A stretch of 64,000 nt of DNA from an uncultured Micavibrio sp. (GCA_964551435.1 CAZKBS010000008.1:4995-68994), one strand, 5' to 3'; shown: positions 1,001 to 41,634, numbered from the stretch's first letter. The notes: generated by a model from the letters alone, not told the origin. Program-made: numbers and translations.

Positions 1001-1462
1001 ATGAAGCTGATAGAACGCCTCGCCCAAAAATATGACCCGTCCCTCACCGGCGCGATTGGCATGATCGGCGGGATGATTGTGCTGGGCGCAGCTGTGGCCA
1101 CGCCGGTTGCGGCAGCGATTGGTGCAGGCGCGGCTACTTTATCAGGTGCCTCTGCACTCGTTGGTGCGATTTGGGGGGGCGGGATTGCTGCGGGCGGCGC
1201 TGCCGCGATTGTCAGCTGGATAGCCCTGCCGCAAATTGTCTATGCGCAGTGCTACGAACATATACTGAAAAAACACGTCGCGGACGGCGGCTCTACATCG
1301 GGTATGAAATGGGTGCCGGGTATCGAAAACATGCGTCAGGCGGTCCCAAGCCTTGGGCAGAAACGCGGCCTTAAAAACATTTTTGCGCGCGGCAAGAAAA
1401 ATACCGATGCGCATGCGAAAGCACCCGCAGACAACAAGCCCCGCCAACCGCCGAAACCCTGA
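1001..1462 (+). CDS. Orphan Gly/Ala-rich membrane-type protein with L-x3-F / Pro-rich C-terminal tail
   Basis: 153 aa ORF fills the mazG-IMPase gap; GAIGMIGG...GAIWGGGIAAGG hydrophobic block; ends SLGQKRGLKNIF...PRQPPKP. Confidence 0.75.
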   Translation: MKLIERLAQKYDPSLTGAIGMIGGMIVLGAAVATPVAAAIGAGAATLSGASALVGAIWGGGIAAGGAAAIVSWIALPQIVYAQCYEHILKKHVADGGSTSGMKWVPGIENMRQAVPSLGQKRGLKNIFARGKKNTDAHAKAPADNKPRQPPKP

Positions 1463-1470
1463 ATAAGGCT

Positions 1471-2286
1471 TCAGGCTGCTTTCATCAAACGCGGATAAAG
1501 AATTTCTTCGAGCATTTTCCAGCGGGCCTTATCTGGCGCGGCCAGCAGCATGCACGGGCGCAGCATATCCGGCGCAAACGGAATATCTTCATGCGCAAGA
1601 CGGACATACCCCCCCGCTTCTTCGGCCAGCAATACGGTTGCGGCGTGATCCCACGGGGTGACTTTATTGATATGCACCACGAAATCCGCGTCACCAGCTG
1701 CAAAATTCAAAAAATCGTGCAGCGAGCTGCGCACGTTAATAAGCCCTTTGATATGGCCATTGATGGATTCAAAATGCCACGCCTGACCGCCGCCGCCCAT
1801 GCCCGTCATTTCTGCCGGCGTCCCTGCGGACGTGCGCACATGCGCGGGCTTGCCGTTGATGGTTGCGCCTTTGCCTTTGATGGCAATCGCCATGCGTTCT
1901 TGCGGCGCATCGTAAACCCAGCCGTACTGCGTCACGCCGTTTTGCACCAGCGCCAGCAGGATACCGAAATGGCTGCGGCCATGCGCGAAATTATACGTAC
2001 CGTCAATCGGGTCGATGACCCAGACGGGGCTGCCGGATTTGAAACGCTCCAGCACGGTTTCGTCTTTTGATACTGCCTCTTCGCCAACAACGATGGAACC
2101 GGGCAGATAGGCCGTCAGTGCCGCGCTGAGCGCTTTTTCCGAAGCTTCATCGGCAATCGTGACGAAATCGCCAGGTTTTTTTTCGCGCACGTCACCGTCG
2201 GCAAGATTTTTGAAACGGGGCATAACCTCCGTCGCCGCAACATCGCGCAGGATATCCGCGACTTTCTGAACGTCGATATCCATCAT
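1471..2286 (-). CDS. Inositol monophosphatase family protein (SuhB-like)
   Basis: DFVTIAD, VGEE, WVIDPIDGTYNF, PWDHAA...EEAGG motifs; start overlaps the hflX stop. Confidence 0.92.
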   Translation of the reverse strand: MMDIDVQKVADILRDVAATEVMPRFKNLADGDVREKKPGDFVTIADEASEKALSAALTAYLPGSIVVGEEAVSKDETVLERFKSGSPVWVIDPIDGTYNFAHGRSHFGILLALVQNGVTQYGWVYDAPQERMAIAIKGKGATINGKPAHVRTSAGTPAEMTGMGGGGQAWHFESINGHIKGLINVRSSLHDFLNFAAGDADFVVHINKVTPWDHAATVLLAEEAGGYVRLAHEDIPFAPDMLRPCMLLAAPDKARWKMLEEILYPRLMKAA

Positions 2287-3701
2287 GCCGCACTGCCTTT
2301 CTTTTTCTGTGTCTGCTTTTTCGTGACTGTCTTTTTCTTTTGTGCCATTTTTTTCACTTTGGGCGCAGCCTGTTTTTTCGCCTTGCGCGGCTTGGGCGAC
2401 GCACGAAATTCATAGCCGAATTTATCGGTAAAACGGGCAACATCTTCAGGGTCGAGACGCACGGAAACGGCGGCGAATTCCTCGCCATCCAGACGCTCCG
2501 TCACTTCGCCGCGCGCATAAAGCCACGCCATGGCCTTGCCGTCTGTGAGCGGGATATCGGCATGCAGCGTCAGGCGGTCTTTACCCAGACGCGCATCAAT
2601 CAGCGAGAGCAGTCGCGCCATCCCCTCGCCCGTCAAGGCCGATACGGCGGCAAGGCTATTCTGCGCCTGTGCGCGTTTAACCGCGTAGCTGCGGTCATCG
2701 GCGGACAGGTTATCGATTTTATTCATGACCTCGATGACGCGCGGGTCGTCTTCGGCGATGCCGAGATCTTTGAGGATTTTAATCACATCCTCTTTCTCGG
2801 CTTCGGTATTTTCCTGCGAAATATCGCGGATGTGCAAAATGACAGCTGCTTCCTGCACTTCTTCCAGCGTCGCGCGGAAGGCGGCGACCAGATGCGTCGG
2901 CAGGTCGGAAATAAAACCGACCGTATCGGACAGAATGGCTTTTTTGCCCGACGGCAGCTCAATGCCGCGCATGGTGGTATCCAGCGTCGCGAACAGAAGG
3001 TCTTTGGCAAAAACCTCCGCCCCCGTCATCCGGTTGAACAGCGTCGATTTGCCTGCGTTGGTATAGCCCACCAGCGCGACAATCGGATACGGCTCTTTCT
3101 TGCGCGATTCACGCTGCAGACGGCGGTTTTTCTTGACGGTTTCAAGATCGACGTTCAGGCGCTTGATTTTTTCATCCAGGATACGGCGATCGAGTTCTTT
3201 TTGCGTCTCACCGGGGCCGCCGGTTTTGCCAAGGCCGCCGCGCTGGCGTTCAAGGTGGCTCCATGCCTTCACAAGGCGGGAGCGTTGATACGACAGCGCC
3301 GCCAGTTCAACCTGCAAACGCCCTTCTTTGGTGCGTGCGCGGGCGCCGAAAATTTCGAGAATAAGACCGGTGCGGTCAATGACTTTGCAGTTCAGTTCTT
3401 TTTCAAGGTTGCGCTGCTGCACGGGCGTGACGGTGGCATCGACGTAAACAAGGCCGACTTCTTTTTCTTTTGCCATCTGCGCGATGCGCTCGACCACGCC
3501 GCCGCCAATCAGGGTTGCGGGTTTTATCTGTTTGACGACCACGACTTCGGCGTGAACCACCTCAAGGTCGATAGCCCGGGCAAGGCCGATGGCTTCTTCG
3601 AGCGCGACGTGCGACGCGCGCAGATGCGTGCGCTGCCCGCCATCTTCCGCACGCGCAGACAGCGGCAGATCGGGATGCAGTACGATGATTTTTTCAGTCA
3701 T
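2283..3701 (-). CDS. hflX: Ribosome-associated GTPase HflX with Lys-rich C-terminal extension
   Basis: GPGETQ, GYTNAGKSTL, LFATLD, DTVGFI, NKID motifs; downstream of hfq. Confidence 0.97.
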   Translation of the reverse strand: MTEKIIVLHPDLPLSARAEDGGQRTHLRASHVALEEAIGLARAIDLEVVHAEVVVVKQIKPATLIGGGVVERIAQMAKEKEVGLVYVDATVTPVQQRNLEKELNCKVIDRTGLILEIFGARARTKEGRLQVELAALSYQRSRLVKAWSHLERQRGGLGKTGGPGETQKELDRRILDEKIKRLNVDLETVKKNRRLQRESRKKEPYPIVALVGYTNAGKSTLFNRMTGAEVFAKDLLFATLDTTMRGIELPSGKKAILSDTVGFISDLPTHLVAAFRATLEEVQEAAVILHIRDISQENTEAEKEDVIKILKDLGIAEDDPRVIEVMNKIDNLSADDRSYAVKRAQAQNSLAAVSALTGEGMARLLSLIDARLGKDRLTLHADIPLTDGKAMAWLYARGEVTERLDGEEFAAVSVRLDPEDVARFTDKFGYEFRASPKPRKAKKQAAPKVKKMAQKKKTVTKKQTQKKKGSAA

Positions 3702-3739
3702 TTGCTTTTCTGGTTTCCGCCTGCGAAAGGCGTTTTGTC

Positions 3740-4000
3740 TTACGCGTCGCTGCCGTCGTTACCGTCCGTGCCGTCTTCGTCGTTCAGGCGCACGGGCGAT
3801 GCCGGCATAATGGTCGAAATCGCGTGTTTGTAGATGAGCTGTGAGTGAGAGTCACGGCGCAGCAGCATGGAAAAATTGTCAAACCAGGTAATGATGCCCT
3901 GCAACTTCACCCCGTTCACCAGAAACACGGTGACGGACATTTTTTCCTTGCGGATTTTATTGAGGAATTTGTCCTGCAAGTTCTGGCTTTTCTCGGACAT
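3740..4000 (-). CDS. hfq: RNA chaperone Hfq
   Basis: QNLQDKFLN...[10 protein letters not shown]...[11 protein letters not shown]; start set at ATG 4000 (AAGGA upstream). Confidence 0.98.
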
Positions 4001-4132
4001 CTTATTTTTATCCTTCACAAAAATTTGTGTGTTTTAAAAGGCCTTGAGCCCTTTATACCCCTCTTGACCATATTTATTTTTAAAGCCGAAACCGCCGAAC
4101 CACAAGGGGTATGCAGCCGCTTTGGCCATGAA

Positions 4133-4831
4133 CTAACGGAAATATTCTCCGATAAATTCCATAAACATGCTGTGAGTTGCAAAACGGCGGGCAGGCAAAT
4201 TCTTGATCAACAGATCTTCCGGCGGCGGCTTGGTTTCGATGAGAATACCGCTGCAACCCGTGCGGTGCGCGCATATCATATCGGTATGGCTGTCGCCGAC
4301 AAACCAGACATCACGCGCAGGCGTAATGCCGCTGCCGTTCAGCGCCAGCGCAACGGGTGCTGGGTCGGGCTTGTCGGCTGCGGCATCCCCCGCCCCGACA
4401 ATCGCGCCGAAATATCCCGTAAAGCCCGCGCGCGCAACGTCTTCGCGCAAAAGATCGCCGCGCTTGTTGCTGACAACCCCCATGTACACACCCGCACGCG
4501 CCAGCGCCGCCAGCACATCACCGATGCCGTCCACCAGCTGCACGCCACGCTCGCGGCAAAGATTCAGGAAGGTTTGGTAATAAACGCGGTCGGCTTCCTG
4601 CCAGCGTTCTTCACCGAAAAGGATAATAAAAGCATCGCGGGCAGACTGGCCGGAACGCCGGCGGATTTCCGCCTCGCTCCAAGGCTCCATGCCCATATGC
4701 TCAAGCGTAGTGTTAATCGCATCCACGCCGATATGCCAGTTATTGACGACCGTATCATCCCAGTCGAACAATACGGCGCGCGGCTTTGGCACCTCCGCTG
4801 AAATAATCGGCGACATCAACGCGGATTCCAT
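4133..4831 (-). CDS. HAD-superfamily hydrolase (phosphoglycolate phosphatase-like)
   Basis: LFDWDDT, VSNK, KPDP, VGDSHTD motifs. Confidence 0.9.
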   Translation of the reverse strand: MESALMSPIISAEVPKPRAVLFDWDDTVVNNWHIGVDAINTTLEHMGMEPWSEAEIRRRSGQSARDAFIILFGEERWQEADRVYYQTFLNLCRERGVQLVDGIGDVLAALARAGVYMGVVSNKRGDLLREDVARAGFTGYFGAIVGAGDAAADKPDPAPVALALNGSGITPARDVWFVGDSHTDMICAHRTGCSGILIETKPPPEDLLIKNLPARRFATHSMFMEFIGEYFR

Positions 4832-5703
4832 TTCTGTTCCTTGCGCGACGGGTTCATGGCGTATTCCATGTAGAGGTCATAGAGCTTGTCGGTAATCGGC
4901 CCGATTTTACCATTGCCGATTTTGTGGCCATCGATACTGCTGACAGGCATAATCAGCGCCGTTGCAGAAGATGTAAAGGCTTCACGCGCCTTATAGGCTT
5001 CCTTGGGCGTAAAGGCACGCTCGACCAGCTCAATACCTTCCTGCTTGCAAAGCACCTGCAGCGCGCTGCGGGTAACGCCTTTCAAAATCGAATTATGCGC
5101 CGTAGGTCGCGTTATCAGGCGGTTTTTTGCATCCACAATCCACGCATTGCTCGATGCGCCTTCGGTAATATAGCCGTCGTCATCGACCATCCACGCCTCG
5201 GCAGCGCCTTCGCGCACGGCTATCTGTTTGGCCAGTACCTGCCCCAGCAGCGCCGTCGATTTGATATCGCGGCGTTTCCAGCGGATATCCGGCACAGTAA
5301 TCACCGGCTTTGCCGCCGCTTTCCGCGCCGGAATGTCAAATGACATATGACGCAGCGTCATGACCAGCGTCGGGCGCACCGCCGGCGACGGGAATTTGAA
5401 ATCACGCGCCGCAATACCGCGGCTGACCTGAATATACAGCGCGCCGTTTTTGATACGGTTGCGGCGCACCATTTCGCGCATGGCGATTTGCAGCACGCGG
5501 CGCGGCATCGGCATTGCGACATCGATTTCCGCAAGTGAACGCTCCAGCCGGTCAAGGTGTCCGACTTCATCGCGCAACTCGCCCTCAATCAGCGCGACGA
5601 CCTCGTAAATGCCATCGGCAAACTGGAAACCGCGATCCTCGATATGAATCTGCGCGGAACCGTGCGGCACATAGCGGCCATTGACGTAAGCGATACGTGG
5701 CAT
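4816..5703 (-). CDS. dat: D-amino-acid aminotransferase (PLP class IV)
   Basis: IEDRGFQFADGIYE, RDIKS, TEGASSNAW, ILKGVTR; usual position after trkA. Confidence 0.9.
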   Translation of the reverse strand: MPRIAYVNGRYVPHGSAQIHIEDRGFQFADGIYEVVALIEGELRDEVGHLDRLERSLAEIDVAMPMPRRVLQIAMREMVRRNRIKNGALYIQVSRGIAARDFKFPSPAVRPTLVMTLRHMSFDIPARKAAAKPVITVPDIRWKRRDIKSTALLGQVLAKQIAVREGAAEAWMVDDDGYITEGASSNAWIVDAKNRLITRPTAHNSILKGVTRSALQVLCKQEGIELVERAFTPKEAYKAREAFTSSATALIMPVSSIDGHKIGNGKIGPITDKLYDLYMEYAMNPSRKEQKWNPR

Positions 5704-5715
5704 GTGGAGTTATCC

Positions 5716-7092
5716 TTAGAAGTATTCGGGGCGCACCGCGAACATCTGTTCGACTTTGCGCACCTGATCGTGGGAGGCAAGAATAATAACGCGGTCATCC
5801 GGTTTGATGACGGTATCGGGGCGCGGCACGATGATGCGCTCTTCACGCAGGATCAGGCCGAAAATCATATCACGCGGGCGCTTGATTTCACTAATCGGTG
5901 TATTGACGATGGCGGAGGTTTCAAGCGCTTCGACCTCCAGAATTTCCGCAAAGCCGTCGCGCAGGGAATGCGCCGCCTTGATACGCCCGCGGCGCACATG
6001 CTGCAAAATCGTCGATACCGTAATCGCCCGCGGATTCACCACCGCATCGATGCCGACACTGGTCGCGAGGGAACTGAAGGAAAGGCTGTTGATCAGCGTA
6101 ATCGCCCGCTCGCAGCCATGCTGTTTGGCGAGCATGGAAACCAGAATGTTGCTCTCGTCGTGGTTCATGACGGCAATCACGGCTTCGGTGGTGCCGATGC
6201 TGGCTTCTTCAAGAATTTCGCGGTTCAGGCCATCACCATGCACGACGGTGACGCCGGACAGTTTTTCCGATACGCGCTGCGCGGTATCATAATCAGCCTC
6301 GATCAGGCGCACGGAAATATCGCGCATGCTGGACTGGATGTCCTCGACAAGGCGGGTACCGATTTTACCTGCACCGACCACCAGCACGCGGCGGGTTTGC
6401 GGATCGTTATATCCGAAAGCGCCCATCGCGCGGTACAAGTGGTCTGTGGACGATACGAAATAGACTTCGTCCCCGACCAGCAGCTCGTCATCCGCACCCG
6501 GAATGATTTTGGTATCGCCGCGAATAATCGCGAGGATGACAATAGACAACTCCGGAAACAGCGACGTCAGATGCTTCAGCGGCGTATTCAGCAGCGGGCA
6601 ATCCGATTTGCAAATCACGCTCACGACCTGCGCCAGTCCCTCCGCCATCGGAATGATGTTATAGGCGCCGGGTACACGGATACGGTTGGCAATCGCGCGC
6701 GCGACCTCGACTTCCGGCGAGATAATCACATCAATCGGCAGGTGATCGCGGCTGAACAGATTGGCCCATGCAGGGTTCAGATATGACTGGTTACGCACGC
6801 GGGCGATTTTCATCGGCACATTAAACAACGAATGGGCAACCTGACAGGCCACCATGTTCACTTCGTCGGAATGTGTTGCGGCAATCAGCATTTCGGCATC
6901 GGCAGCGCCGGCCCGCTCCAGCACATCGGGCTGCGACGCATGGCCGACATGACCGGTGACATCCAGTGCCTCGTTCACTTCGGCGATACGGTCGGCATCG
7001 CTATCGATAATGGTGACGTTGTTACCCTCATCCGACAGGTATTCGGCAATGGCTGTGCCCACCTGCCCTGCGCCGCAAATCACGACCTTCAT
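5716..7092 (-). CDS. trkA: Trk potassium uptake NAD-binding subunit
   Basis: MKVVICGAGQVG, DEVNMVACQVAHSLF, second GAGKIG RCK domain. Confidence 0.96.
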   Translation of the reverse strand: MKVVICGAGQVGTAIAEYLSDEGNNVTIIDSDADRIAEVNEALDVTGHVGHASQPDVLERAGAADAEMLIAATHSDEVNMVACQVAHSLFNVPMKIARVRNQSYLNPAWANLFSRDHLPIDVIISPEVEVARAIANRIRVPGAYNIIPMAEGLAQVVSVICKSDCPLLNTPLKHLTSLFPELSIVILAIIRGDTKIIPGADDELLVGDEVYFVSSTDHLYRAMGAFGYNDPQTRRVLVVGAGKIGTRLVEDIQSSMRDISVRLIEADYDTAQRVSEKLSGVTVVHGDGLNREILEEASIGTTEAVIAVMNHDESNILVSMLAKQHGCERAITLINSLSFSSLATSVGIDAVVNPRAITVSTILQHVRRGRIKAAHSLRDGFAEILEVEALETSAIVNTPISEIKRPRDMIFGLILREERIIVPRPDTVIKPDDRVIILASHDQVRKVEQMFAVRPEYF

Positions 7093-7128
7093 GTTCCCCC
7101 GCCTTCTTTCTTATTCTTCTTTTTTTCT

Positions 7129-8568
7129 TCAGGCTTCCGCGCGTTCTTTTTCGTCATCGCCGCGCAAATCCTTGTCGGCATCCTTGTCATTGGTCTGGAT
7201 GCCCAGCGATTTGAGTTTACGGTGCAGCGCCGAGCGCTCCATGCCGATAAACCCTGCGGTTTTCGAAATATTCCCGCCAAAGCGGTTGACCTGCGACAGC
7301 AGATATTCGCGCTCGAAAATCTCGCGCGCTTCACGCAGCGGCTTCGACATCAGCTCCACACCATCGCGGCCGCGTATCATGTCGACGGCCTGCTGTTTCA
7401 GCTCCGGCGGCAACATATCCGCGGTGATCGGCTGGCCCGGCTGGGCCGGCGCCATAATCAGCAGCCATTCGATGGCATTGCGCAGCTGGCGCACGTTTCC
7501 GGGCCAGTCATAGGCCTGCATCAGCGCCATCGCGTCATCGGAAAAGAAACGCGGCTGCACATTTGCTGTACGGGCGGACAAATCCATGAAAAACCGCGCG
7601 AGCACCGGAATGTCTTCCAGACGTTCGCGCAAGGATGGCATGTGAATAGGCACCACATTCAGGCGGTAGAACAAATCCTGACGGAACTTGCCCGCCATCA
7701 TGCGTTCCTGCAAATCCTGATTGGTCGTGGCCACAATGCGGATATCGACTTCTATTTTTTCGCTGCCGCCGATGCGCGTGAAATGCTGGTCTTGCAAAAC
7801 GCGTACAATTTTTGCCTGCGTTTCAAGCGGCATATCAGCGACTTCGTCCAGCAGCAACGTGCCGCCATTGGCCATTTCCAAGACGCCCGCCTTGCGGCCC
7901 TGCACGCCTTCGGTACCGAAAAGTTCGGTCTCGATACGCTCGGGCGACAGAATGGCGCAGTTGAGCGCAATATAGCTTTTATCCGCGCGCTTCGAATAGC
8001 GGTGTATCATGCGCGCGGCAACGTCTTTGCCCGTGCCCGCCTCGCCGGTAATCAGAATACGGCTGTTGGTCGGGGACACGCGCTCGATATTCTGGCGCAG
8101 CTGGTGCACAGCCTGCGACGTGCCATGCAGTTCGGACACGCTGCCAAGCGCCTTGAGCTTCAGTTCCTGATTTTCACGCTTCAGACGCGCCGCTTCCAGC
8201 CCGCGCTGGGTCAGCACCAGCAGCTTGTCGGTCTGGAAAGGCTTTTCGATGAAATCATAAGCCCCCATCTGGATCGCGGAGACGGCGGTTTCGATGTTGC
8301 CGTGCCCGCTGATCATGATGACAGAGGTATCAGGGTGGCTCTTGCTCAGCTTTTTGAGGAGCTGCATGCCATCCAGTTCGCTGTTTTCCAGCCAGATGTC
8401 GAGGATGACAAGATCCGGCGCCTTTTCGGCAATCATTTTTTCCGCGCTTTGCGAGTCTGCCGCGCTGCGGGTTTCATAGCCCTCATCCTCCAGAATCCCC
8501 TGAATGAGAGAGCGGATATCGGCCTGATCGTCGACAATCAGAATATCGGATATGTTATTTGGTTGCAT
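7129..8568 (-). CDS. ntrX: Response regulator NtrX (REC-AAA+-HTH)
   Basis: ILDIWLE receiver, GEAGTGKD Walker A, no GAFTGA loop, GMERSALHRKL HTH; follows ntrY. Confidence 0.95.
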   Translation of the reverse strand: MQPNNISDILIVDDQADIRSLIQGILEDEGYETRSAADSQSAEKMIAEKAPDLVILDIWLENSELDGMQLLKKLSKSHPDTSVIMISGHGNIETAVSAIQMGAYDFIEKPFQTDKLLVLTQRGLEAARLKRENQELKLKALGSVSELHGTSQAVHQLRQNIERVSPTNSRILITGEAGTGKDVAARMIHRYSKRADKSYIALNCAILSPERIETELFGTEGVQGRKAGVLEMANGGTLLLDEVADMPLETQAKIVRVLQDQHFTRIGGSEKIEVDIRIVATTNQDLQERMMAGKFRQDLFYRLNVVPIHMPSLRERLEDIPVLARFFMDLSARTANVQPRFFSDDAMALMQAYDWPGNVRQLRNAIEWLLIMAPAQPGQPITADMLPPELKQQAVDMIRGRDGVELMSKPLREAREIFEREYLLSQVNRFGGNISKTAGFIGMERSALHRKLKSLGIQTNDKDADKDLRGDDEKERAEA

Positions 8569-8570
8569 GG

Positions 8571-20161: not shown

Positions 20162-20659
20162 GTGGTCTCAACAAAAAAGAGTAAAAATGATGGATCCCAA
20201 AAAAAAATTTTCGACGTAATAAGTTATCCCTTTAAAAAGCTGAACCAGGGTTTAAGTCTCCTCGTGGACACTGTTTTGCCAAAAGGCACACAAAAATTCG
20301 TCGCAGACAAAAAGAACCTGATATATGGCGTCGCTATCTTTACTACCGCGGCTACGATTGTGGTGGCACCCGCGATCTTCCCGCCCCTCTTTGCTGGCAC
20401 AATGTTGTTTAATTTTATCGCAAGCTATTGCGAAGAAAACACACTTAAACGCAAAAATGCTGCACAAAGCGCTGAGCCTGCAAATACAGTCGATGCCTCA
20501 AACACGTCTGCCGCCCAAGAGACAAGCTTCAAACCGAACGCACTGTCACCCGATTTTAAATCGGCCCTGACAAATGCATCCTCGGAAGCCGCGAACAGTA
20601 ACGCAGCACCTGCGGATCAAACGTCCACCCCAAAGCGGGCCAATAACCGCACGCCTTGA
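20162..20659 (+). CDS. AT-rich orphan membrane protein with L-x3-F / low-complexity tail; true start possibly ATG 20187/20190 via slippage on A9
   Basis: Hydrophobic hairpin LIYGVAIF...LFNFIASY; tail SFKPNALSPDF...RANNRTP; own promoter and terminator. Confidence 0.65.
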   Translation: MVSTKKSKNDGSQKKIFDVISYPFKKLNQGLSLLVDTVLPKGTQKFVADKKNLIYGVAIFTTAATIVVAPAIFPPLFAGTMLFNFIASYCEENTLKRKNAAQSAEPANTVDASNTSAAQETSFKPNALSPDFKSALTNASSEAANSNAAPADQTSTPKRANNRTP

Positions 20660-25047: not shown

Positions 25048-25914
25048 ATGACCGCCGCCACCGCACAGCACCATATTTCTATCGGCAACCTGAAAATGGG
25101 CAACGACCTGCCCTTCGTGCTGATCGCCGGCCCCTGCCAGATGGAAAGCCGCGACCACGCTTTCGACATGTGCGGCGCCATCAAGGAAATCACGGGCAAG
25201 CTGGGCATTCCGCTGGTCTATAAATCTTCGTTCGACAAGGCGAACCGCACCTCGCTGAAAGGCCAGCGCGGCATCGGGCTTGAAAAAGGCCTGCCGGTTT
25301 TCGAAGAACTGCGCAGCAAAATGAACCTGCCCGTCATCACCGATATTCACACCGCCGAACAATGCGCGATTGTCGCGCCGTCGGTGGATGTGCTGCAAAT
25401 CCCCGCATTTCTGTGCCGCCAGACCGACCTTCTGATCGCCGCCGCCAAAACCGGCAAGCCGATCAACGTCAAGAAAGGCCAGTTCCTTGCACCGTGGGAC
25501 ATGAAAAACGTCGCCGCGAAAATAATCGAAAGCGGCAACCCGAACGTGATGCTGTGCGAACGCGGCGTGACCTTTGGCTATAACACGCTGGTCAACGATA
25601 TGCGCGCCCTGCCCATCATGGCCGAAACCGGCCTGCCTGTCGTTTTCGACGCGACGCATTCGGTGCAGCAACCGGGTGGCGCGGGTACCGCATCGGGCGG
25701 CGACCGCCGCATGGTGCCGCCGCTGGCGCGCGCCGCGCTGGCCATCGGCTGCGCCGCGATTTTCATGGAAACGCATCAAGACCCCGACAAGGCACCGTCG
25801 GACGGTCCCAACATGGTGAAGCTGTCGGATCTCGAAGGCATTCTGACGCAGCTTGTCGCCATCGACCGTCTCATCAAACCCGAAGCTTACAGCCGCGCAC
25901 AAAAAGCGGCCTGA
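25048..25914 (+). CDS. kdsA: KDO8P synthase
   Basis: IAGPC, KSSFDKANRTS, QIPAFLCRQTDL, KKGQF, DATHSVQ, PSDGP. Confidence 0.97.
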   Translation: MTAATAQHHISIGNLKMGNDLPFVLIAGPCQMESRDHAFDMCGAIKEITGKLGIPLVYKSSFDKANRTSLKGQRGIGLEKGLPVFEELRSKMNLPVITDIHTAEQCAIVAPSVDVLQIPAFLCRQTDLLIAAAKTGKPINVKKGQFLAPWDMKNVAAKIIESGNPNVMLCERGVTFGYNTLVNDMRALPIMAETGLPVVFDATHSVQQPGGAGTASGGDRRMVPPLARAALAIGCAAIFMETHQDPDKAPSDGPNMVKLSDLEGILTQLVAIDRLIKPEAYSRAQKAA

Positions 25915-25945: not shown

Positions 25946-26491
25946 ATGGGCGATACGAATATGGACATGACCCGCAGCAAAATCTTCAACGTCGGCGTTT
26001 ACGCCTGCGCTGCCATCGGCGCGGTGACAGGCGCTGTCGGATATGGCGGCGGCACGCTTGGCGGTATTCTTGGCATGGGCGCGGTTGGCGCGGTGGCGGG
26101 CGGCCTTGGTATCCCCCTCGCCCTCACGGGTGCCGCGGTCATGGGCTATGTCGGATATGTCGGGCTTAAATCCACCATCAAGGCACTCAAAAGCGAAGGC
26201 GCTGCCGTACCGCTCGGCCTTGCCATCGTCGGCATCTCCGCTGCCAAGGCATTATTTGTCGAGCCTGTGAAATCACTCCACGCACTGTTCACCCGCGCGC
26301 GCGATAATAACGGACATCAATCCCCGCCCGCGCGCAGCATGGATGATGCGGGCAGCAGCAGCGCAGCGCCCTCACGCCTGAAGGCAGGCAAGCTCAAAGC
26401 CGCTTTTGCGGGTATCCTAAAACCGCTGCGTAAAAAATCGCCCGCCGAGAAACCGGCGGCAGCGCCGCAGCAAAAACCGCCCGCGCCTTAA
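25946..26491 (+). CDS. Orphan glycine-zipper membrane-type protein with L-x3-F / Pro-rich tail
   Basis: AGGAG RBS then ATG 25946; GAVTGAVGYGGGTLGGILGMGAVGAVAGG; tail SRLKAGKLKAAF...QQKPPAP. Confidence 0.78.
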   Translation: MGDTNMDMTRSKIFNVGVYACAAIGAVTGAVGYGGGTLGGILGMGAVGAVAGGLGIPLALTGAAVMGYVGYVGLKSTIKALKSEGAAVPLGLAIVGISAAKALFVEPVKSLHALFTRARDNNGHQSPPARSMDDAGSSSAAPSRLKAGKLKAAFAGILKPLRKKSPAEKPAAAPQQKPPAP

Positions 26492-26492
26492 T

Positions 26493-27245
26493 TCAAGGCG
26501 CGCCAAGACCCGAAGGCAGCGTCGGCATCGACGGCAGGGGCGGAATGGCGGGTAAATCATCCAGACTCATGGCAGGCGGCGCTATTTGCGGCTTGCGGCG
26601 CGGCAGAAAGACAGTCGTACCCTTTGCTGTCTTAGCCTCCGGCTTCTTGACCGTACCATGCGCAGGCGCCATCCCCAGATAGCCCAGCAATATATAGGTA
26701 TCCTCGCGCGGCAACTCGCCCTTGCGGGCCTGAATTTGCATGAAAGCCGCCGCCTTGTCGGACGTGCGCATGAAAACGCCCGCGTTATGTTCGCGCGCAT
26801 CTCCCTCGCCGATTTTATATTCGATATAAAACGCAGGCTCCCCGATGCCGTTTTCGAAATATTGAAGGTCGATGACCTCGGCCGTTTTTTTGTAGTTACC
26901 GACAAGAAGCTGCGCAAGACCCGTCATGATTTTCGTATCCGCATCGGCGCGGCCTGTCAGGCCGTAAACCGTGGTGGTTTGCAAACGCGTCCAGTTTTTG
27001 ACGTCGTGCCCCTCGGGCGTATATTCCAGCTGCGCGGTGCGGAACTGCGGGTCGGTAAATCCCGCCCATGTGAAAGCAGGGCAGCCGAAATCTTTGGCAA
27101 TCGGCAGAAATACCTGACCGGAAGCTTCAAGCGCGGCAATCTGGCTCGGCTCCTGCGCTTCGGTTTCAAAGGCACCGGCAGGCGCAGCCCATACAAGCGC
27201 ACAGAACAAAAACACTGTAAAACGGCTGAACAATACCATAATCAA
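26493..27245 (-). CDS. Secreted/periplasmic hypothetical protein with Pro-rich tail
   Basis: Sec-type signal ending APAGA-F; GGAGG RBS; C-terminal LPRRKP...PPLPSMPTLP. Confidence 0.72.
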   Translation of the reverse strand: MIMVLFSRFTVFLFCALVWAAPAGAFETEAQEPSQIAALEASGQVFLPIAKDFGCPAFTWAGFTDPQFRTAQLEYTPEGHDVKNWTRLQTTTVYGLTGRADADTKIMTGLAQLLVGNYKKTAEVIDLQYFENGIGEPAFYIEYKIGEGDAREHNAGVFMRTSDKAAAFMQIQARKGELPREDTYILLGYLGMAPAHGTVKKPEAKTAKGTTVFLPRRKPQIAPPAMSLDDLPAIPPLPSMPTLPSGLGAP

Positions 27246-31666: not shown

Positions 31667-31690
31667 CAATTCTCCCCCTGTTCGATGCTT

Positions 31691-34155: not shown

Positions 34156-34257
34156 ACGCGGGTTCTCCTGTAAAATTCCTTGATAATCCACAGCTTTTTC
34201 GCCAAGATGTCAAGACACCAAACAGACAATTATTCAAAAAAATCAAAGGAGCCGCCG

Positions 34258-35016: not shown

Positions 35017-35032
35017 AAGCCCATTTAATTGA

Positions 35033-36052
35033 TTATTCGTTCAGCCCCGCCGGAACAACGGCAGCGGGCGCAGGCGCTGCGGCGCTATAGGCCTTTGCAG
35101 CGGCGTGGCGTTTTTTGATCATCTCGCTGAGGGGTATCAGCTCGATATTTTTTGCCGCCAGCGTCGGCAGCCAGCTTTGCAGCGCATCCAGCGTCACATC
35201 TTTCGGATGACCAATCGCCACCGCATAACCGCCGATGCGCGCAATGCGTTCGGTTTTTTCAAGCGCAGCCATGACCTGATCTGTGGTTTCGTAATGGTCG
35301 AGGAACACATCGCGGTGCGTGGTCGGGATGCCTTTAGACATCGCCATATCTTCGGCCACGCTGTCGGGCGCGGTTTTTGAATCAAGAAAATAAACGCCGC
35401 GCTTTTTCAAATCCCGCATCAAAACCGCAAGGCCGGGCGCGTGTTTTGTGAACGCGCTGCCCATGTGGTTGTTAACGCCTTTATAACCGCTGAAAGCATC
35501 CAGATTGCGCGCGATGCGTTTTTCCAGCTCCTCCGCAGAATGGCCGACGCCCAGAAAATCAGGCCCCGGATTAGCGGTCATGCGCGACGGCTCCATGGGC
35601 AGATGCACCATCAGCTCATGCCCCTTTTGCTGTGCGAGCGCCGCCTGCGCGGCGACATTGTTGGCATAGGGCAAAAATGCCAGCGTGACGCCCGCAGGCA
35701 AATCAATCGCACGGGCGGACCGTTTATGGTCGATACCCACATCATCAATCACAATCGAAATGAACACTTTGCGCTGCGGCGCCATCATGCCGGGACCGAA
35801 GGGACCGGACGCATCGGGCGGCGTTGCCATGACGGTCTGCACGCCGCTGTCAATCGCGCCCGCCGCATCCGCCGCTTCGCGGCAGGTGGTTTCATGGTCC
35901 GCAGGCGCGGTGTCTTTCCAATAGATATCATCCTGTTTGAACGCGGCCAGCAAATCGGTGTTTGTCTCGCCATCAAACGCGCGCGCCTGCGGCGCAGCCA
36001 GCATGACCGCCGCCAGCATCAGGCCTGCGAATAGTCCATTCAAAAAACGCAC
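35033..36052 (-). CDS. Divergent polysaccharide deacetylase (YibQ family)
   Basis: Signal peptide, IVIDDVG, HLPMEP, GVNNHMGS, FLDS, RDVFLD, AIGHP. Confidence 0.9.
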   Translation of the reverse strand: MRFLNGLFAGLMLAAVMLAAPQARAFDGETNTDLLAAFKQDDIYWKDTAPADHETTCREAADAAGAIDSGVQTVMATPPDASGPFGPGMMAPQRKVFISIVIDDVGIDHKRSARAIDLPAGVTLAFLPYANNVAAQAALAQQKGHELMVHLPMEPSRMTANPGPDFLGVGHSAEELEKRIARNLDAFSGYKGVNNHMGSAFTKHAPGLAVLMRDLKKRGVYFLDSKTAPDSVAEDMAMSKGIPTTHRDVFLDHYETTDQVMAALEKTERIARIGGYAVAIGHPKDVTLDALQSWLPTLAAKNIELIPLSEMIKKRHAAAKAYSAAAPAPAAVVPAGLNE

Positions 36053-36135
36053 GTCGAAACCCCGTATCTAACCCCAGTTCTTCGCGGCCATCATGACGGT
36101 TTTGCACGGCCTGGGAAAGACTTGTTTAAACCCGC

Positions 36136-36175
36136 TTGACACGAAAGAGGAATAAAGGTAGAACAAAATAAGAAT
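36136..36175 (+). promoter_or_regulatory. lexA promoter with overlapping alphaproteobacterial SOS boxes
   Basis: TTGACA(36136)-N17-TAGAAC; GAAT-N7-GAAC-N7-GAAT at 36150-36175 resembles the GAAC-N7-GAAC LexA repeat. Confidence 0.75.
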
Positions 36176-36200
36176 ACCCCGCTTAAGGAGCGCAAAGAGC

Positions 36201-36941
36201 ATGCTGACCCAGAAACAACGCGATCTTTTGATGTTCATTCACGACTACACGTCCCGCACGGGACTGTCGCCGTCGTTCGAGGAAATGAAAGAAGGTCTGG
36301 ATCTCAAATCCAAATCGGGCATTCACCGCCTGATCAACGCGCTGGTCGAACGCGGGTTTCTGGAGCGTTTGCCGAACAAGGCGCGCGCACTCGAAGTCAA
36401 AAAACTGCCGGAAAACGCGGCGGGCAAGCTGAATGTCCCCGCCTCCGGCGTACGCTCGGTATCAAGCCCTGCGACCGTCGCCGCCATTAAAAACCCCAAG
36501 GCCGGCGTGAAGCCGAATTTCAAGCAGTCCATGCCCGCCATGCCCGCCGCGAACAGCGATATGGCGGAGGTGCCGCTCTACGGCAAAATCGCCGCCGGCA
36601 GCCCTATCGAGGCACTGCGCCATGAAACCGACATGATCGGCGTGCCGTTCCACATGATGGGCAATACGCCCTGCTACGCCCTCACCATCGAGGGGGATTC
36701 CATGAGCAAGGCCGGCATCATGGACGGCGATATCGTGATTATCGAAGAATGCGACCGCGCCAATGACGGCGACATTGTGGTGGCGCTGGTGGACGAAGAA
36801 GAAGTCACCCTCAAACGTCTGCGCCGCGAGGTCGGCTCGGTCGTTCTGATGCCGGAAAACGACGCCTATCAACCCATCCGTCTGCCGCCCCACCGCGTGC
36901 GGATTCAGGGGCGTCTGCGCAGCCTTTTGCGGACGTATTAA
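36201..36941 (+). CDS. lexA: SOS repressor LexA
   Basis: MLTQKQ..LL, SPSFEEMK..L.LKSKSGIHRL, IAAG cleavage site, GDSM, VTLKR. Confidence 0.97.
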   Translation: MLTQKQRDLLMFIHDYTSRTGLSPSFEEMKEGLDLKSKSGIHRLINALVERGFLERLPNKARALEVKKLPENAAGKLNVPASGVRSVSSPATVAAIKNPKAGVKPNFKQSMPAMPAANSDMAEVPLYGKIAAGSPIEALRHETDMIGVPFHMMGNTPCYALTIEGDSMSKAGIMDGDIVIIEECDRANDGDIVVALVDEEEVTLKRLRREVGSVVLMPENDAYQPIRLPPHRVRIQGRLRSLLRTY

Positions 36942-36991
36942 CCCCGTCCGCAGCCTGCGCGGCAGCGAAAATCCGTTTTTTTCAAAAAGTT

Positions 36992-37013
36992 ATAAAGTAA
37001 CACTTTACTTTAT
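36992..37013. promoter_or_regulatory. Perfect palindromic operator-like site upstream of the DUF2061-like gene
   Basis: ATAAAGTAA-CACT-TTACTTTAT. Confidence 0.6.
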
Positions 37014-37058
37014 GCCGCGATGCGATATATCTTTCCGTAATCAAAGGAAAGAATAATC

Positions 37059-37394
37059 ATGCTTCTTGCAAAAACGGCTACTTACGGGGTTCTTCATATT
37101 GCTGTCGCCTTTCTGGTCGGCTGGACGGTCAGCGGCGATATACATATCGGCCTTGGGGTTGCCATGCTGGAGCCGCTGGCGCAAATCGGCGGTTTTTATT
37201 TCCACGAAAAAATCTGGCAAAAATATCAGGCGCGCAAGGCGCTTGAAAAAGGCCTGAGCGCCGACGAAGCCCACAAGCAATGGCATGTCAAAATGCCCTG
37301 CTGCGAAGCCACGCATGAAATGCTGAAACAGGCGCAGGTCATCAAGACCAAACTGCAAAACAAAACAGCGGATAGCCAGCAGCGCGCCGCCTGA
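37059..37394 (+). CDS. DUF2061-like small membrane protein
   Basis: KTATYGVLHIAVAF.V.W..SG, EP..Q...FYFHEKIW; AAGGA RBS. Confidence 0.8.
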   Translation: MLLAKTATYGVLHIAVAFLVGWTVSGDIHIGLGVAMLEPLAQIGGFYFHEKIWQKYQARKALEKGLSADEAHKQWHVKMPCCEATHEMLKQAQVIKTKLQNKTADSQQRAA

Positions 37395-37407
37395 CGGGTT
37401 TTTCCTT

Positions 37408-39546
37408 TTAATCTTTTTTATCTTTCGGCTTCGCGCCCGCCGTCCACGGGCGCTGGCCGCGCTCATCCTTGACGCTGCGGATATCGGGCGGCTTGCCCGC
37501 TGTCAGGTAAATCGCATGCGCGCCATCGCTGCGCAATGTCCAGCGGTCGATGACCGCAACCTTGCGCTTGCAAGCGGGCGGTAATTTAATAGCCGATTTT
37601 GAAATCATCACCGCTGCCGAAGCGCATTCTTCGGCGGCCGCTTCGGGTTTGCGGATAAACGATATGATATGCCCCTTCAGATTGGCGCGGCAGGCGGCAT
37701 CATCGCAGGACAGAAAATCCCCCGCACCGCCCGGTAACTGGCGTTCCGGCCAGACTCGTGGCGATGCCTCCCGGGCACGGGAAAGCCCGAAACGCCCTTC
37801 GCGCACCAGCCACTGCTCGCGCACGAATTTTTCCTTGGATAGCGTCGAAAACCATATTTTTCCATCCGGCGCACGCAGGGCGAAAAGATCCCCGCTGGCG
37901 GCCATCAAAATATCCGCCCGCGGCGTCAGGGCGGCCATCAGGGCGGCGACGGCCATCGGCGCCAGTCCTGCCCAGCGTATCCAGCCGCGCCACCCGCAGA
38001 CCCAGATGCCGCCGATGGTAAAAAGCCCCAGCCAAAGCGCATCAAAACTGCCGCCCTGCCAGCCCGCATATTCCCACCCCGCAACCAGTTCGGCGACATA
38101 CATGAAAACGTCGATGCTTTTTTCGGTCAGCAACAGCGGATATTTTTCAAGTCCGAAAGGCATCAGCAAACATGACAAAAGCCCGACCGGAAAGGTCACA
38201 AACGATGATACCGGCACCGCCACCATGTTTGCCGCCAGCCCGCCGATAAACGGGACGCGCCCGAAATGATACAGCGCGAAAGGCGCCGTCGCCGCACTGG
38301 CCACCAGCGAGGTTGAAAAACAGCCCAGCAGATAAAGCCCATATCGCACCGACCAATCCGCATCGCGGAAATGTTTTTTCCACCAAGGCGCGGTGCTTTC
38401 ATAAAAAGCAATCAGGGCGACGACGGCAGCGAAAGACATCTGGAAGCTCGGCCCCATCAGGCTTTCCGGCGCCAGAACAAACAAAAGCAGCGCCGCAAAT
38501 GCCGCCAGCCGCAACGTGAACGGGTCGCGGTCTATCATAATCGCCGTCATCACCACGCAGGTCATGATGACCGCGCGCTGTGCCGGAATGGGCGATCCTA
38601 TCAGCAGCATGTAAAAAATAGATACGGCCATGGCAACCGCCGCCGCGATTTTTTTAATCGGCCAGCGCAGCGCCGTATAGGGAATGGCCGCCAGAAGCGC
38701 GCGCACGAAAAAAAACGGAAACCCCGCAATCAACACGAAATGCGATCCCGAAATCGCAATCAGATGCGCGATGCCGGAATCCCGCGCCACCTGCCAGTCT
38801 TGTTCGGATATTCCCCTGTCCTCGCCAATCATAAAGGCGGTAATCATGGCGGCACGGTCGCGGTCTTCAATGGCGGCGAAGATTTTTTCGCGGATATGCC
38901 GGCGCAGTTTTTCAAAGAAAAATTCACCGCCCTGCCGCGGCGTCACAACCTCAAGATTGCCGAGGGCATATCCCGTACCGCCCAGCCCCTGAAAAAAGGC
39001 ATGGCGCTGAAAATCGAACGCCCCCGGCATGACGGGCGCCGAGAGCGGCAGCAGTGATGCACGTACCTCCACCACATCACCCGCCTGCGGCACGGCGGGG
39101 TCGTTGTTTTTAAGCCGGATGCGCACGCGCGCGGGCAGACTGTCCTGAAACAGCGTGCCTTTCACAACTGTAAAATCCTCCAGCACGATCCGGAAGTTTT
39201 TGGGCTGCGGCTGCACCTCCACCACCTTGCCGCGCAGGGTGATGGTATAGCTGCGCTTTTCAATCACAGGCGCTGCGACGTTATGCGTACGCCACTGCGC
39301 CGCCGCAAAACCGCCCACCGCCAGCAGCAGCGCCAGAAAGGGAATAAAAACCGCCTGATTCCGGTAAAATGCCCGCAAGAGCGGCAGCATAAACAAGGCA
39401 ACCAGACTGCCGAGCAGCAGCGGCGGCTCCCCGTGCAGGGCGAAATATGCCGCAATCCCAAGGGCCATGGGCACAGGCAGCCAGAAAATCCAGCGTTCCC
39501 GCTGGTTTTGCATCTCCTGCCAAAATGCGCCTAAATATCTTGCCAT
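37408..39546 (-). CDS. comEC: ComEC/Rec2 competence protein (no MBL domain)
   Basis: PGAFDFQR, SGIAHLIAISGSH, SFQMSFAAV; between lexA and gltX; start uncertain. Confidence 0.92.
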   Translation of the reverse strand: MARYLGAFWQEMQNQRERWIFWLPVPMALGIAAYFALHGEPPLLLGSLVALFMLPLLRAFYRNQAVFIPFLALLLAVGGFAAAQWRTHNVAAPVIEKRSYTITLRGKVVEVQPQPKNFRIVLEDFTVVKGTLFQDSLPARVRIRLKNNDPAVPQAGDVVEVRASLLPLSAPVMPGAFDFQRHAFFQGLGGTGYALGNLEVVTPRQGGEFFFEKLRRHIREKIFAAIEDRDRAAMITAFMIGEDRGISEQDWQVARDSGIAHLIAISGSHFVLIAGFPFFFVRALLAAIPYTALRWPIKKIAAAVAMAVSIFYMLLIGSPIPAQRAVIMTCVVMTAIMIDRDPFTLRLAAFAALLLFVLAPESLMGPSFQMSFAAVVALIAFYESTAPWWKKHFRDADWSVRYGLYLLGCFSTSLVASAATAPFALYHFGRVPFIGGLAANMVAVPVSSFVTFPVGLLSCLLMPFGLEKYPLLLTEKSIDVFMYVAELVAGWEYAGWQGGSFDALWLGLFTIGGIWVCGWRGWIRWAGLAPMAVAALMAALTPRADILMAASGDLFALRAPDGKIWFSTLSKEKFVREQWLVREGRFGLSRAREASPRVWPERQLPGGAGDFLSCDDAACRANLKGHIISFIRKPEAAAEECASAAVMISKSAIKLPPACKRKVAVIDRWTLRSDGAHAIYLTAGKPPDIRSVKDERGQRPWTAGAKPKDKKD

Positions 39547-39615
39547 AGCGGGAAACGATACGTTAAATTGCCACAAAAAACAGCCCCCAAATTCCAAGGT
39601 TTCAGAGACTTAATC

Positions 39616-41022
39616 ATGTCCAAAATCATCACCCGTTTCGCGCCGTCCCCGACCGGATACCTGCATATTGGCGGCGGCCGCACCGCGCTGTTCAACTGGC
39701 TTTTCGCCAAGCACATGGGCGGCCAGTTTTTGCTGCGTATCGAGGATACCGACCGCGCCCGCTCGACCGAGGCGGCGGTGGAAGCCATTCTCGACGGCAT
39801 GCGCTGGCTGGGTCTGGATTGGGATGGGGAGCCTATCTTCCAGTTCGCGCGCATGAACCGCCATGCCGAAATCGCGCACCAGCTTCTGGCCGAAGGCAAA
39901 GCCTATTACTGCTATTGCACGCCCGAAGAGCTGGAAAAAATGCGCGAGGAGCAACTCGCCAAAGGCCTGTCGCCCCGCTATGACGGCCGCTGGCGCGACC
40001 GCGACCCCAAAGACGCCCCCGCCGGCGTCAAACCCGCCGTGCGCATCAAGGCACCGAACCGCGCGAATGATGAAATGCTGGTCAAGGACGCCGTGCAGGG
40101 GGATGTGCGCGTGCCCTATACGCAGCTCGACGATATGATTTTGCTGCGCGGCGACGGCACGCCGACTTATATGCTGTCCGTGGTTGTCGATGACCATGAT
40201 ATGGGCATCACGCACGTCATCCGCGGCGACGACCACCTGACGAATACCTTCCGCCAGCGCATGATTTACGACGCCATGGGCTGGGATGTACCGCAATTCG
40301 CCCATATCCCGATGATTTTGGGCGAAGACGGCGCGAAGCTGTCCAAACGCCACGGCGCTGTCGGCCTGCATGAATACGCGAACAAAGGCTACCTGCCCGA
40401 AGCGATGCGCAATTACCTGCTGCGCCTTGGCTGGGGTCATGGCGATACCGAAATTGTGGATACCGAAGAAGCCGTCAAACTGTTCACGCTGGACGGTATC
40501 GGCAAATCCCCCTCGCGCATGGATTTCACCAAACTGGCGCATGTGAATGCGCATTACATGCGTCAGGCCGACGAAGACCGCCTGATGTCGCTGACCATGC
40601 CGTATATCGAGGAAAAACTCGGCGCGAAGCCGGACGACGCGGGTATTGCCCGTTTCAAATCCGGCCTGCATGCGCTGAAAGAACGCGCCAGCACGCTTAT
40701 CGAATTGGCCGATGCCGGATTGTTTTTCGTACGCCCGCGCCCGTTGCCGCTGACCGAAGACGCCGCCAAGGTGCTGGACGCCGACACGCGCGGCATGCTG
40801 GGTGAAATGAAACAGACGCTGGTATCCCTCGACGATTTCAAAGCCGAGAAAATCGAGGCCGCGCTCAAAGAATACGGCACGCAAAAAGGCCTGAAGCTTG
40901 GCAAAGTCGCCATGCCGCTGCGCGCCGCCATCACTGGCACGACCAACAGCCCGTCCATCTTCCACGTCGCGGAAATCCTCGGCAAGGAAGAAACGCTGGC
41001 GCGGTTGTCGGACGTTGCCTGA
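39616..41022 (+). CDS. gltX: Glutamate--tRNA ligase
   Basis: RFAPSPTGYLHIGG, LRIEDTD, IRGDDH, KLSKR. Confidence 0.97.
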   Translation: MSKIITRFAPSPTGYLHIGGGRTALFNWLFAKHMGGQFLLRIEDTDRARSTEAAVEAILDGMRWLGLDWDGEPIFQFARMNRHAEIAHQLLAEGKAYYCYCTPEELEKMREEQLAKGLSPRYDGRWRDRDPKDAPAGVKPAVRIKAPNRANDEMLVKDAVQGDVRVPYTQLDDMILLRGDGTPTYMLSVVVDDHDMGITHVIRGDDHLTNTFRQRMIYDAMGWDVPQFAHIPMILGEDGAKLSKRHGAVGLHEYANKGYLPEAMRNYLLRLGWGHGDTEIVDTEEAVKLFTLDGIGKSPSRMDFTKLAHVNAHYMRQADEDRLMSLTMPYIEEKLGAKPDDAGIARFKSGLHALKERASTLIELADAGLFFVRPRPLPLTEDAAKVLDADTRGMLGEMKQTLVSLDDFKAEKIEAALKEYGTQKGLKLGKVAMPLRAAITGTTNSPSIFHVAEILGKEETLARLSDVA

Positions 41023-41046
41023 TATTTTCAGAAAGACCTTGAAGCC

Positions 41047-41634
41047 ATGAACATCCGCGATTTCGGCAAAAAAGCCCTCAAGACAGCGCTGCAAGTCAGC
41101 GCCGTCACCCTTTATGCGGCGTCGCTGGGAAGTCCAGTGATCGGCGCTGTCGTCGGCGGCATGACGGGCGGTATTGCGGGTGCAGCCATTGGGCTTTTCG
41201 CAGGGCCGATTGCGGCGGCGGGTGTCATGACTGGGATTTACGTTGCGGCCAAAAGCGTACGCTTCGCAATGAAATCGCCGGAGGAGCGCAAAGAATCCCT
41301 CGCCGCTTTCGACGCCAGACAGACGCTGCGCGAAACGGGCCAAGGTATGGGCCGCGCGCTGGCATGGGCTGTCAGCCTGTCGGTTTTCGTCGGCACGCTG
41401 GGCCGCGTGAATGTCAGCCTTGATTGGGGACAGCCGTCTGACAATGATGATAATAACAGCAGCAGGAACGCGGGGCCGACAATTCAGCCCCCGCAAAAAG
41501 ACACGACTTCATCGCTGCCCGATACCCCGCTTGCCGCACGTTTCACAAACGCGAAAAACCCTGCACCAGAAGTCGCTGCGGCGGACAAGCCACAGCCAGC
41601 AAAACCGCAAAACCCACCCGCGCCGCGCGGTTGA
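41047..41634 (+). CDS. Orphan glycine-zipper membrane-type protein with L-x3-F / Pro-rich tail
   Basis: GAVVGGMTGGIAGAAIG block, second hydrophobic segment, tail SLPDTPLAARF...QNPPAPRG. Confidence 0.78.
   Translation: MNIRDFGKKALKTALQVSAVTLYAASLGSPVIGAVVGGMTGGIAGAAIGLFAGPIAAAGVMTGIYVAAKSVRFAMKSPEERKESLAAFDARQTLRETGQGMGRALAWAVSLSVFVGTLGRVNVSLDWGQPSDNDDNNSSRNAGPTIQPPQKDTTSSLPDTPLAARFTNAKNPAPEVAAADKPQPAKPQNPPAPRG

Follow-up and report, generated by a model that had tools for sequence, protein, structure and literature searches.

A 64,000-nt stretch of DNA from an uncultured Micavibrio sp. (hereafter the window) contains four dispersed open reading frames (ORFs) for small proteins, all on the plus strand. 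P0001 (1001-1462, 153 amino acids (aa), coding score 60) encodes a small, lineage-restricted membrane protein. P0002 (20162-20659, 165 aa) and P0004 (41047-41634, 195 aa) are likewise lineage-restricted membrane proteins, the former without a terminal tag and the latter with a Pro/Ala-rich tail. P0003 (25946-26491) has 181 aa from the start used by its database homologues, the longest ORF beginning at 25853, and is predicted to consist of hydrophobic helices and a disordered tail. The coding score of P0002 was weak, at 8.9 compared with 53-73 for the other three. An initial annotation had read the four as orphans sharing a C-terminal module, S-[LF]-x4-5-L-x3-F followed by an Ala/Pro/Lys/Asn-rich tail of 25-33 aa, and had proposed it as the export signal of a lineage-specific effector system. 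The ORFs and motif strings were recovered at their coordinates and translate as described. The shared element which proved robust is the very end of the proteins, [KR]-P-P-x-P at the free C-terminus ([KR]PPxP-COOH, here called the tag).

The tag was evaluated in the whole genome (2.47 Mb, 57% G+C), for which a custom caller based on dicodons predicted 2265 genes (coding density 89%) and kept all four ORFs. PPxP stood at the exact end of 25 of the 2265 genes, whereas shuffling the last 30, 15 or 10 residues (300 shuffles) gave 1.73, 3.14 and 4.21. The highest of the 300 shuffles reached 11, the internal frequency of the motif predicted 0.61, and the excess over shuffles of the last 10 residues was about six-fold. 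PPxP at most two residues from the end was found in 32/2265 proteins (4.88 ± 2.24 expected). The commonest four-residue endings included PPKP (6), PPAP (5), PPQP (5) and PPRP (4). A comparison of the last 30 aa with protein bodies, made with no prior motif, returned KPP (73 vs 7.0), PKPP (29 vs 0.22) and PPKP (23 vs 0.75) as the most enriched tail k-mers. The position was sharp: 30 proteins had [KR]PP at precisely five residues from the end, versus 5, 9, 10 and 5 proteins at positions 4, 6, 7 and 8.

Carriers differ in their codons and in the DNA downstream, so the tag is a protein-level feature, and a DNA repeat or a terminator was ruled out as the source of the ending. The stop codon was TGA in 20 of the 25 exact PPxP enders. 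Among the C-terminal signatures of this genome, [KR]PPxP-COOH is the strongest. The tag exists, is fixed to the C-terminus at the protein level, is conserved, is tied to ankyrin proteins and avoids N-terminal hydrophobic leaders. We regard it as a genuine, selected C-terminal tag with a putative docking role.

The consensus stressed by the initial annotation did not hold up as a genome-wide motif. In the last 60 residues of 2155 proteins, the loose form S-x(0,1)-[LF]-x(4,5)-L-x3-F matched 14 tails (8.69 ± 2.85 in 200 shuffles), four of which were the ORFs of the window themselves, and its rate was alike in tails and internal windows (0.65% vs 0.52%). The strict form was not enriched either (7 tails vs 4.69 ± 2.07 in shuffles). 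A lineage-specific C-terminal signature does exist, as proposed, and it marks a large, mostly leaderless, ankyrin-rich set of proteins; S-[LF]-x-L-x3-F is not that signature. The first reading thus picked up a genuine feature but put its weight on the wrong half.

Conservation within the four families was used to locate the constrained parts of the tails. Among 11 P0001 representatives (28-64% identity), F128 of the L124-x3-F128 island (1370-1384) and P142 were invariant, and homologues of the terminal PPKP-COOH (1448-1459) ended in PPKP, PPAP, QPKP, PPQP or similar. The 21 homologues of P0003 kept L150 and F154 of the L150-x3-F154 island (26393-26407; 181-aa numbering) as well as P178 and P179 of the terminal PPAP-COOH (26477-26488); the ending KPP-x-x was retained and the linker varied. 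In P0004, the L162-x3-F166 island (41530-41544) was invariant in 6 close homologues. Its terminus, PPAP followed by RG (41614-41631), runs two residues beyond the usual tag and represents a variant of it: P190, P191 and P193 were invariant, and the family ends in PP[AV]P plus two residues. The P0002 family (8 sequences) had K124, D131, F132 and A135 invariant, including a D131-F132 island (20552-20557). Its endings vary and none is PPxP.

Profile comparisons with hhalign followed the same grading. The sole match between the P0001 and P0003 profiles was tail to tail, in register over 34 columns (94.1%, E 1.2e-7), so that L124-x3-F128 aligned with L150-x3-F154. Both of these tails were also matched by that of P0004, in an unchanged register but weakly (28% and 45.5%), and the P0002 tail had no profile match to the others (1.4%). 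Family conservation and profile comparisons together indicate that the tail module is real for P0001 and P0003, plausible for P0004 and unsupported for P0002. The initial claim of a module common to all four therefore stood for the aligning pair, loosely for P0004, and failed for P0002, which is a similar-looking membrane protein without the tag. A tail score (K+R+P-D-E, counted in the final 15 residues) placed P0004, P0001, P0003 and P0002 at percentiles 98.4, 96.4, 88.7 and 73.4 of the genome. Judged from the alignments, the Phi-x3-F patch (Phi, hydrophobic) is a conserved island at family level, not a genome-wide motif; within the variable tails of the P0001 and P0003 families, no other patch is invariant. 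P0002 and P0001 also had a weak common patch after the membrane region, [YC]-C-[YE]-[EK]-x-x-x-K-[RK]-[KH] (hhalign 18.6%, E 1.3e-3), which may be due to chance.

P0001 has a Gly/Ala-rich hydrophobic region at about aa 17-82, followed by a 70-aa basic tail. For P0003, only secondary structure was taken from the AlphaFold2 (AF2) model, with helices at 6-33, 38-83 and 89-120 predicted at low confidence (mean predicted local distance difference test score, pLDDT, 53). L150 and F154 fall in a short predicted helix (148-162) between low-pLDDT, disordered segments.

The four ORFs were described as unrelated orphans. Neither phmmer nor jackhmmer matched any of them to another; a BLAST hit between P0003 and P0004 (E 1e-5 without composition correction) was treated as compositional, and paralogy among the four was rejected. 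Pfam gave no family at E ≤ 0.01 for the four, and two sub-threshold matches, both to P0004. Orphans in the strict sense they are not. Orthologues exist among the 8 other genomes of the genus (P0003 in 7, P0001 in 4, P0002 in 4 and P0004 in 1), and the ORFs are therefore lineage-restricted families. A search of 1.84 billion proteins returned 10 representatives of P0001 at E ≤ 1e-3. ESM Atlas look-alikes of P0005 and P0001 scored at most 0.84 and were uninformative. Another genus of the family has distant relatives of P0003 in tandem arrays of 2-4 copies (G024:C1:63236-64113, G022:C85:25243-25909).

The conserved neighbours named earlier were partly confirmed by NCBIfam. P0001 lies between mazG and a gene for an IMPase-family protein, and P0002 between lpdA and pdhC, as annotated. 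P0003 has kdsA upstream; on its other side, a 250-aa ORF (26493-27245, minus strand) precedes eno, and this ORF had no NCBIfam match at E ≤ 1e-10. P0004 is flanked by gltX and by a gene for a FadE-like acyl-CoA dehydrogenase (41918-44239, plus strand), not by gltA. The dehydrogenase ends in APKPPGAA, a further KPP-type tail in the window.

Twenty-four of the 25 exact PPxP enders, all except C2:67786, were scanned against Pfam. Eight were ankyrin proteins (one below cut-off), nine were enzyme-like and seven had no family, P0001 and P0003 among them. The genome has 120 Ank_2 matches in 61 genes, and seven matches outside gene calls. An exact PPxP end was found in 8/61 ankyrin genes compared with 17/2204 others (odds ratio 19.4, p 1.3e-7). 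Tail scores of at least 7 occurred in 32/61 ankyrin genes, 121/2204 others and 9/2223 random internal windows. The last 15 residues of ankyrin proteins contained 2-5% D/E (vs 10-12%), 23-26% K/R and 16-26% Pro. An N-terminal hydrophobic segment, called by a crude hydropathy test, was present in 537/2265 genes, but in only 1/61 ankyrin genes, 1/25 PPxP enders and 2/56 [KR]PP carriers. Many ankyrin genes are clustered around Dot/Icm genes on contig C1 (100-270 kb), where genes for putative DUF6782 or M91-like metallopeptidases adjoin.

The enzyme-like enders comprised a HAD protein, a DUF4442 thioesterase, an FAD oxidoreductase, an M20 peptidase, a thioredoxin, a cytidylate kinase, a carboxylesterase, and weak phosphatase and SLT matches. 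Several tagged enzymes are extra copies. The tailed thioredoxin is encoded immediately upstream of the canonical, tail-less trx (G000:C4:113528-114341; orthologous loci L108-L124). This pair is present in genera g1, g2, g3, g4, g6 and g7 of the family (f1), a longer tailed form is found in g5, and families outside f1 have the canonical copy only. The tail of about 25 aa ends in K-[PG]-P-x-P and has a conserved [ND][ND]-I patch; 14 of 20 tailed thioredoxins end in P-x-P (KPPKP, KGPTP, GGPRP and similar), and the linker varies. Close tail-less paralogues were also present for the tailed M20 peptidase, HAD hydrolase, Hsp70, acyl-CoA synthetase and SLT-like protein. Within the genus, 7/9 genomes have the cytidylate kinase tag, which is absent from all other genera and therefore young.

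Other endings were recorded alongside the tag. A sibling ending, Phi-x-x-P-x-x-Phi-[RK][RK]R-x-P, was present in 26 proteins, 13 of them ankyrin proteins (3.5 ± 1.8 expected; e.g., C4:55713-57148 and C25:3500-4297), and C7:23047-23823 combines a Phi-[RK][RK]R-x-P ending with PPKP. By comparison, [KR]PPxP is sharper, fixed to the terminus, and extends to membrane proteins and tailed enzyme paralogues. Ala-Ala-COOH ended 152/2265 proteins (48.4 ± 6.4 in last-10 shuffles), with KKAA, GGAA and KAAA among the commonest endings. A candidate 'F[RKT]L' tail class was discarded, as it was not enriched overall (35 vs 27.3 ± 4.6); nine of its carriers were ankyrin proteins. In sortase, exosortase and rhombosortase signals, a hydrophobic helix and then a basic stub come after the motif. 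The tag makes up the final 4-5 residues of its carriers, with no sequence behind it, and does not resemble a sorting signal of the LPXTG, PEP-CTERM or GlyGly-CTERM type.

The initial annotation placed the transporter outside the window, and a Dot/Icm type IVB secretion system with DotL, DotM and DotN is indeed encoded elsewhere in the genome. Contig C1 carries DotH/IcmK (9e-75), DotI/IcmL (2e-51), a DotG-like TrbI protein, DotN (4.5e-28) and a weak DotF match, together with a 1019-aa ORF of faint VirB4/TraC similarity; the cluster is flanked by at least 8 ankyrin genes. On contig C4, DotM/IcmP (1e-49) adjoins a coupling protein resembling DotL, and two ankyrin genes come next. The genome also has five TolC-like OEP ORFs and five T2SSE-family ATPases; no type VI secretion sheath and no match to the VirB4 family PF03135 were found in it. 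A second coupling protein (PF02534/TraG-D_C; G000:C2:193888-198960) is encoded two genes upstream of an ORF of 494 aa with a possibly relaxase-like N-terminus. The neighbouring ORFs have low coding scores, and the locus looks like a conjugative-element remnant or another mobile element.

The observations on the tag strongly imply a common reader. Our best single guess, a tentative one, is that the tag is a type IVB secretion signal read by the Dot/Icm coupling complex. P0001, P0003 and, more loosely, P0004 would be small inner-membrane proteins confined to Micavibrio-like bacteria, with disordered, basic and probably cytoplasmic tails. Each tail carries a short Phi-x3-F patch of hydrophobic character that probably forms a small helix. 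[KR]-P-P-x-P-COOH follows some 22-24 residues further on, and both elements are conserved while the linkers drift. The tag would serve as a family-wide address label on about 25-56 proteins of the genome, mainly leaderless ankyrin proteins and extra tailed enzyme copies, and one common cytoplasmic reader would bind it. The likeliest reader would be DotL/DotM/DotN with further adaptors, and the tagged proteins would be exported substrates. The three membrane proteins could then be transmembrane effectors, which enter the inner membrane first and are later extracted via the cytoplasmic tail, as in Legionella.

Several features are shared with effector signals of Legionella, Coxiella and Rickettsiella. 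Those signals are non-cleaved, disordered and situated in the last ~20-35 residues; they are borne by soluble proteins without a leader as well as by transmembrane effectors, many carriers have ankyrin repeats, and a machine with DotL, DotM and DotN is present here as well. Known Dot/Icm signals are depleted in D/E at the very C-terminus (PMC12981334), as are the ankyrin tails of this genome. Legionella transmembrane effectors pass through an intermediate in the inner membrane, for which their periplasmic loops have to be short and their C-terminal signal has to face the cytoplasm (PMC11602083). Read from hydropathy and charge, the topologies of P0001, P0003 and P0004 appear to combine short loops between helices with a long basic tail at the C-terminus.

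The VirB/D4 signals of Agrobacterium, for which an Arg-spacing consensus exists, and of Bartonella and Helicobacter offer a partial parallel. Type IVA substrates are described as having a net-positive, unstructured C-terminus read by the coupling protein (PMC12981334), and the K/R content of the ankyrin tails makes them positive too. In contrast to type IVA systems, the genome has positive tails without a PF03135 machine, its sole PF02534 coupling protein seems to be part of a mobile element, and a Pro-Pro-x-Pro end is foreign to VirB/D4 signals.

A number of findings weigh against export by Dot/Icm. All support for it is correlational; for the membrane proteins, the AF2 model has low confidence and the topology is deduced from hydropathy and charge only. 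The tag is unlike the described Dot/Icm classes (E-block, hydrophobic residue at -3, FxxxLxxxK): its defining feature is a Pro-rich basic end fixed to the free C-terminus. Ankyrin proteins had mildly raised D/E at -16 to -30 (14-17% vs 12.5%), and their last residues were rich in P/K/R, not hydrophobic. The LvgA-type FxxxLxxxK motif was not enriched (14 vs 12.7 ± 3.2; [KR] variant 34 vs 27.8 ± 4.8), and among basic-tailed proteins it matched only P0003 and one other. A transmembrane-like segment was present in 3/25 PPxP enders, two of which were P0001 and P0003, so these two are atypical carriers. Some carriers resemble ordinary cytoplasmic enzymes, and the cytidylate kinase is single-copy. 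Lineages with and without the tag both have a DotM whose soluble domain is strongly basic (isoelectric point (pI) 9.1-10.6); the domain therefore offers no charge complement to the basic tag, and co-variation of DotM charge with the tag was rejected. A 163-aa ORF between dotM and dotL was considered as an acidic, family-specific adaptor and discarded, being neutral (pI 6.6) with homologues outside the family.

The distribution of the tag among 41 relatives in 8 families (25 genomes in f1 and 16 in seven other families) adds to these points. A loose DNA pattern (CCNCCNNNNCCNTGA) was swamped by out-of-frame Ala-rich coding and unusable, and a K-P-P-x-P-stop pattern was taken instead. It gave 268 matches vs 58 control matches in the 25 f1 genomes, and 20 vs 32 in the 16 others. 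In a 400-kb sample of a different genus of the same family (59% G+C), 7/396 genes ended in PPxP, and 13 of 27 ankyrin-like genes had basic tails. A 400-kb sample from outside the family had 0/420 genes ending in PPxP and no ankyrin-like gene, a comparison qualified by its 39% G+C. As judged from these matches, the tag is confined to one bacterial family. DotH/IcmK was detected in 40 of the 41 genomes, in all 8 families. The type IVB system is thus much wider than the tag. The genome paper of the cultured M. aeruginosavorus ARL-13 reports no evidence of type III or IV systems (PMC3189940); either the present lineage is unlike the cultured strain in this respect, or the system escaped notice there. 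Our literature search found no paper linking Micavibrio with IcmK or Micavibrionaceae with type IV secretion, and the titles and abstract openings of the Micavibrio and Micavibrionales literature on secretion or ankyrins mentioned no such tag. A more specific version of the Dot/Icm reading is conceivable, and we consider it more doubtful: [KR]PPxP-COOH and the sibling Phi-[RK][RK]R-x-P would together be a type IVB signal of a new class, recognised by an adaptor specific to the family.

Next after Dot/Icm export we rank a tag with no part in secretion, which we consider unlikely but worth weighing: a cytoplasmic docking, localisation or stability label, by which a family-specific hub (a scaffold, protease adaptor or chaperone) gathers its carriers or controls their turnover. 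Such a label fits a tag limited to one family whose type IVB system is order-wide, carriers that include enzyme-like proteins and the single-copy cytidylate kinase, and the lack of co-variation with DotM charge. Ala-Ala-COOH is linked to ClpXP, and its overuse here is a hint that the identity of the C-terminus bears on proteostasis in this genome. However, no candidate reader was found for a docking label. The strong ankyrin tie and the enzyme duplicates that differ mainly by their tails resemble effector repertoires, and ankyrin expansion and tag co-occur in the family, both being missing from the out-family sample.

Export through a type I (ABC/TolC) system, with the tag as its C-terminal signal, is very unlikely. 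Leaderless carriers and the five TolC-like ORFs would suit it, but no ABC or membrane fusion partner is linked to the carriers, and type I systems in general handle folded enzyme domains and polytopic membrane proteins poorly. Less probable again is a translational device, in which PPxP-stop would pause the ribosome at the gene end for folding, insertion or coupling, and the peptide would have no reader. Pro-Pro and Pro-stop contexts are slow steps of translation, and the motif is locked to a stop codon that is predominantly TGA in the exact enders. Against this, thioredoxin orthologues drift to K-G-P-x-P, keeping P-x-P and losing Pro-Pro; conservation extends to the preceding K/R and to the Phi-x3-F island, and the ankyrin link would be left unexplained.

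The least likely explanation is that the tails have no function and are low-complexity Ala/Pro/Lys sequences produced by composition and drift, their four-way alignment being due to chance: the literal consensus is not enriched, P0002 does not fit, A/K/P-rich k-mers are broadly enriched in tails and hhalign statistics on biased tails may be optimistic, but this explanation is already largely refuted by the end enrichment over last-10 shuffles, the sharp position of [KR]PP, the residues conserved amid variable linkers in the P0003, P0001 and thioredoxin tails, and the recurrence of the pattern in the same-family genome of similar G+C.

If the tag and its sibling ending do form such a new signal class, at least 100 substrates would be marked in bacteria labelled as Micavibrio-like predators: about 60 ankyrin proteins, tailed thioredoxin, Hsp70 and peptidase duplicates, and small Gly/Ala-rich membrane proteins pulled from the inner membrane by their tails. 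The lineage would then manipulate eukaryotic or other target cells with a large set of injected proteins. A terminal tag readable from sequence would list the candidate cargo of an uncultured lineage without homology to known effectors, and would flag which duplicated housekeeping enzymes and small membrane proteins were recruited. It also poses a testable question, namely what reads a free Pro-Pro-x-Pro C-terminus in bacteria. A reader other than the Dot/Icm coupling complex would point to an undescribed cytoplasmic docking system. If the reader is that complex, the range of type IVB signals would be wider than the Legionella-type classes, which would also suggest ankyrin-rich injected repertoires in bacteria filed as Micavibrio-like predators.

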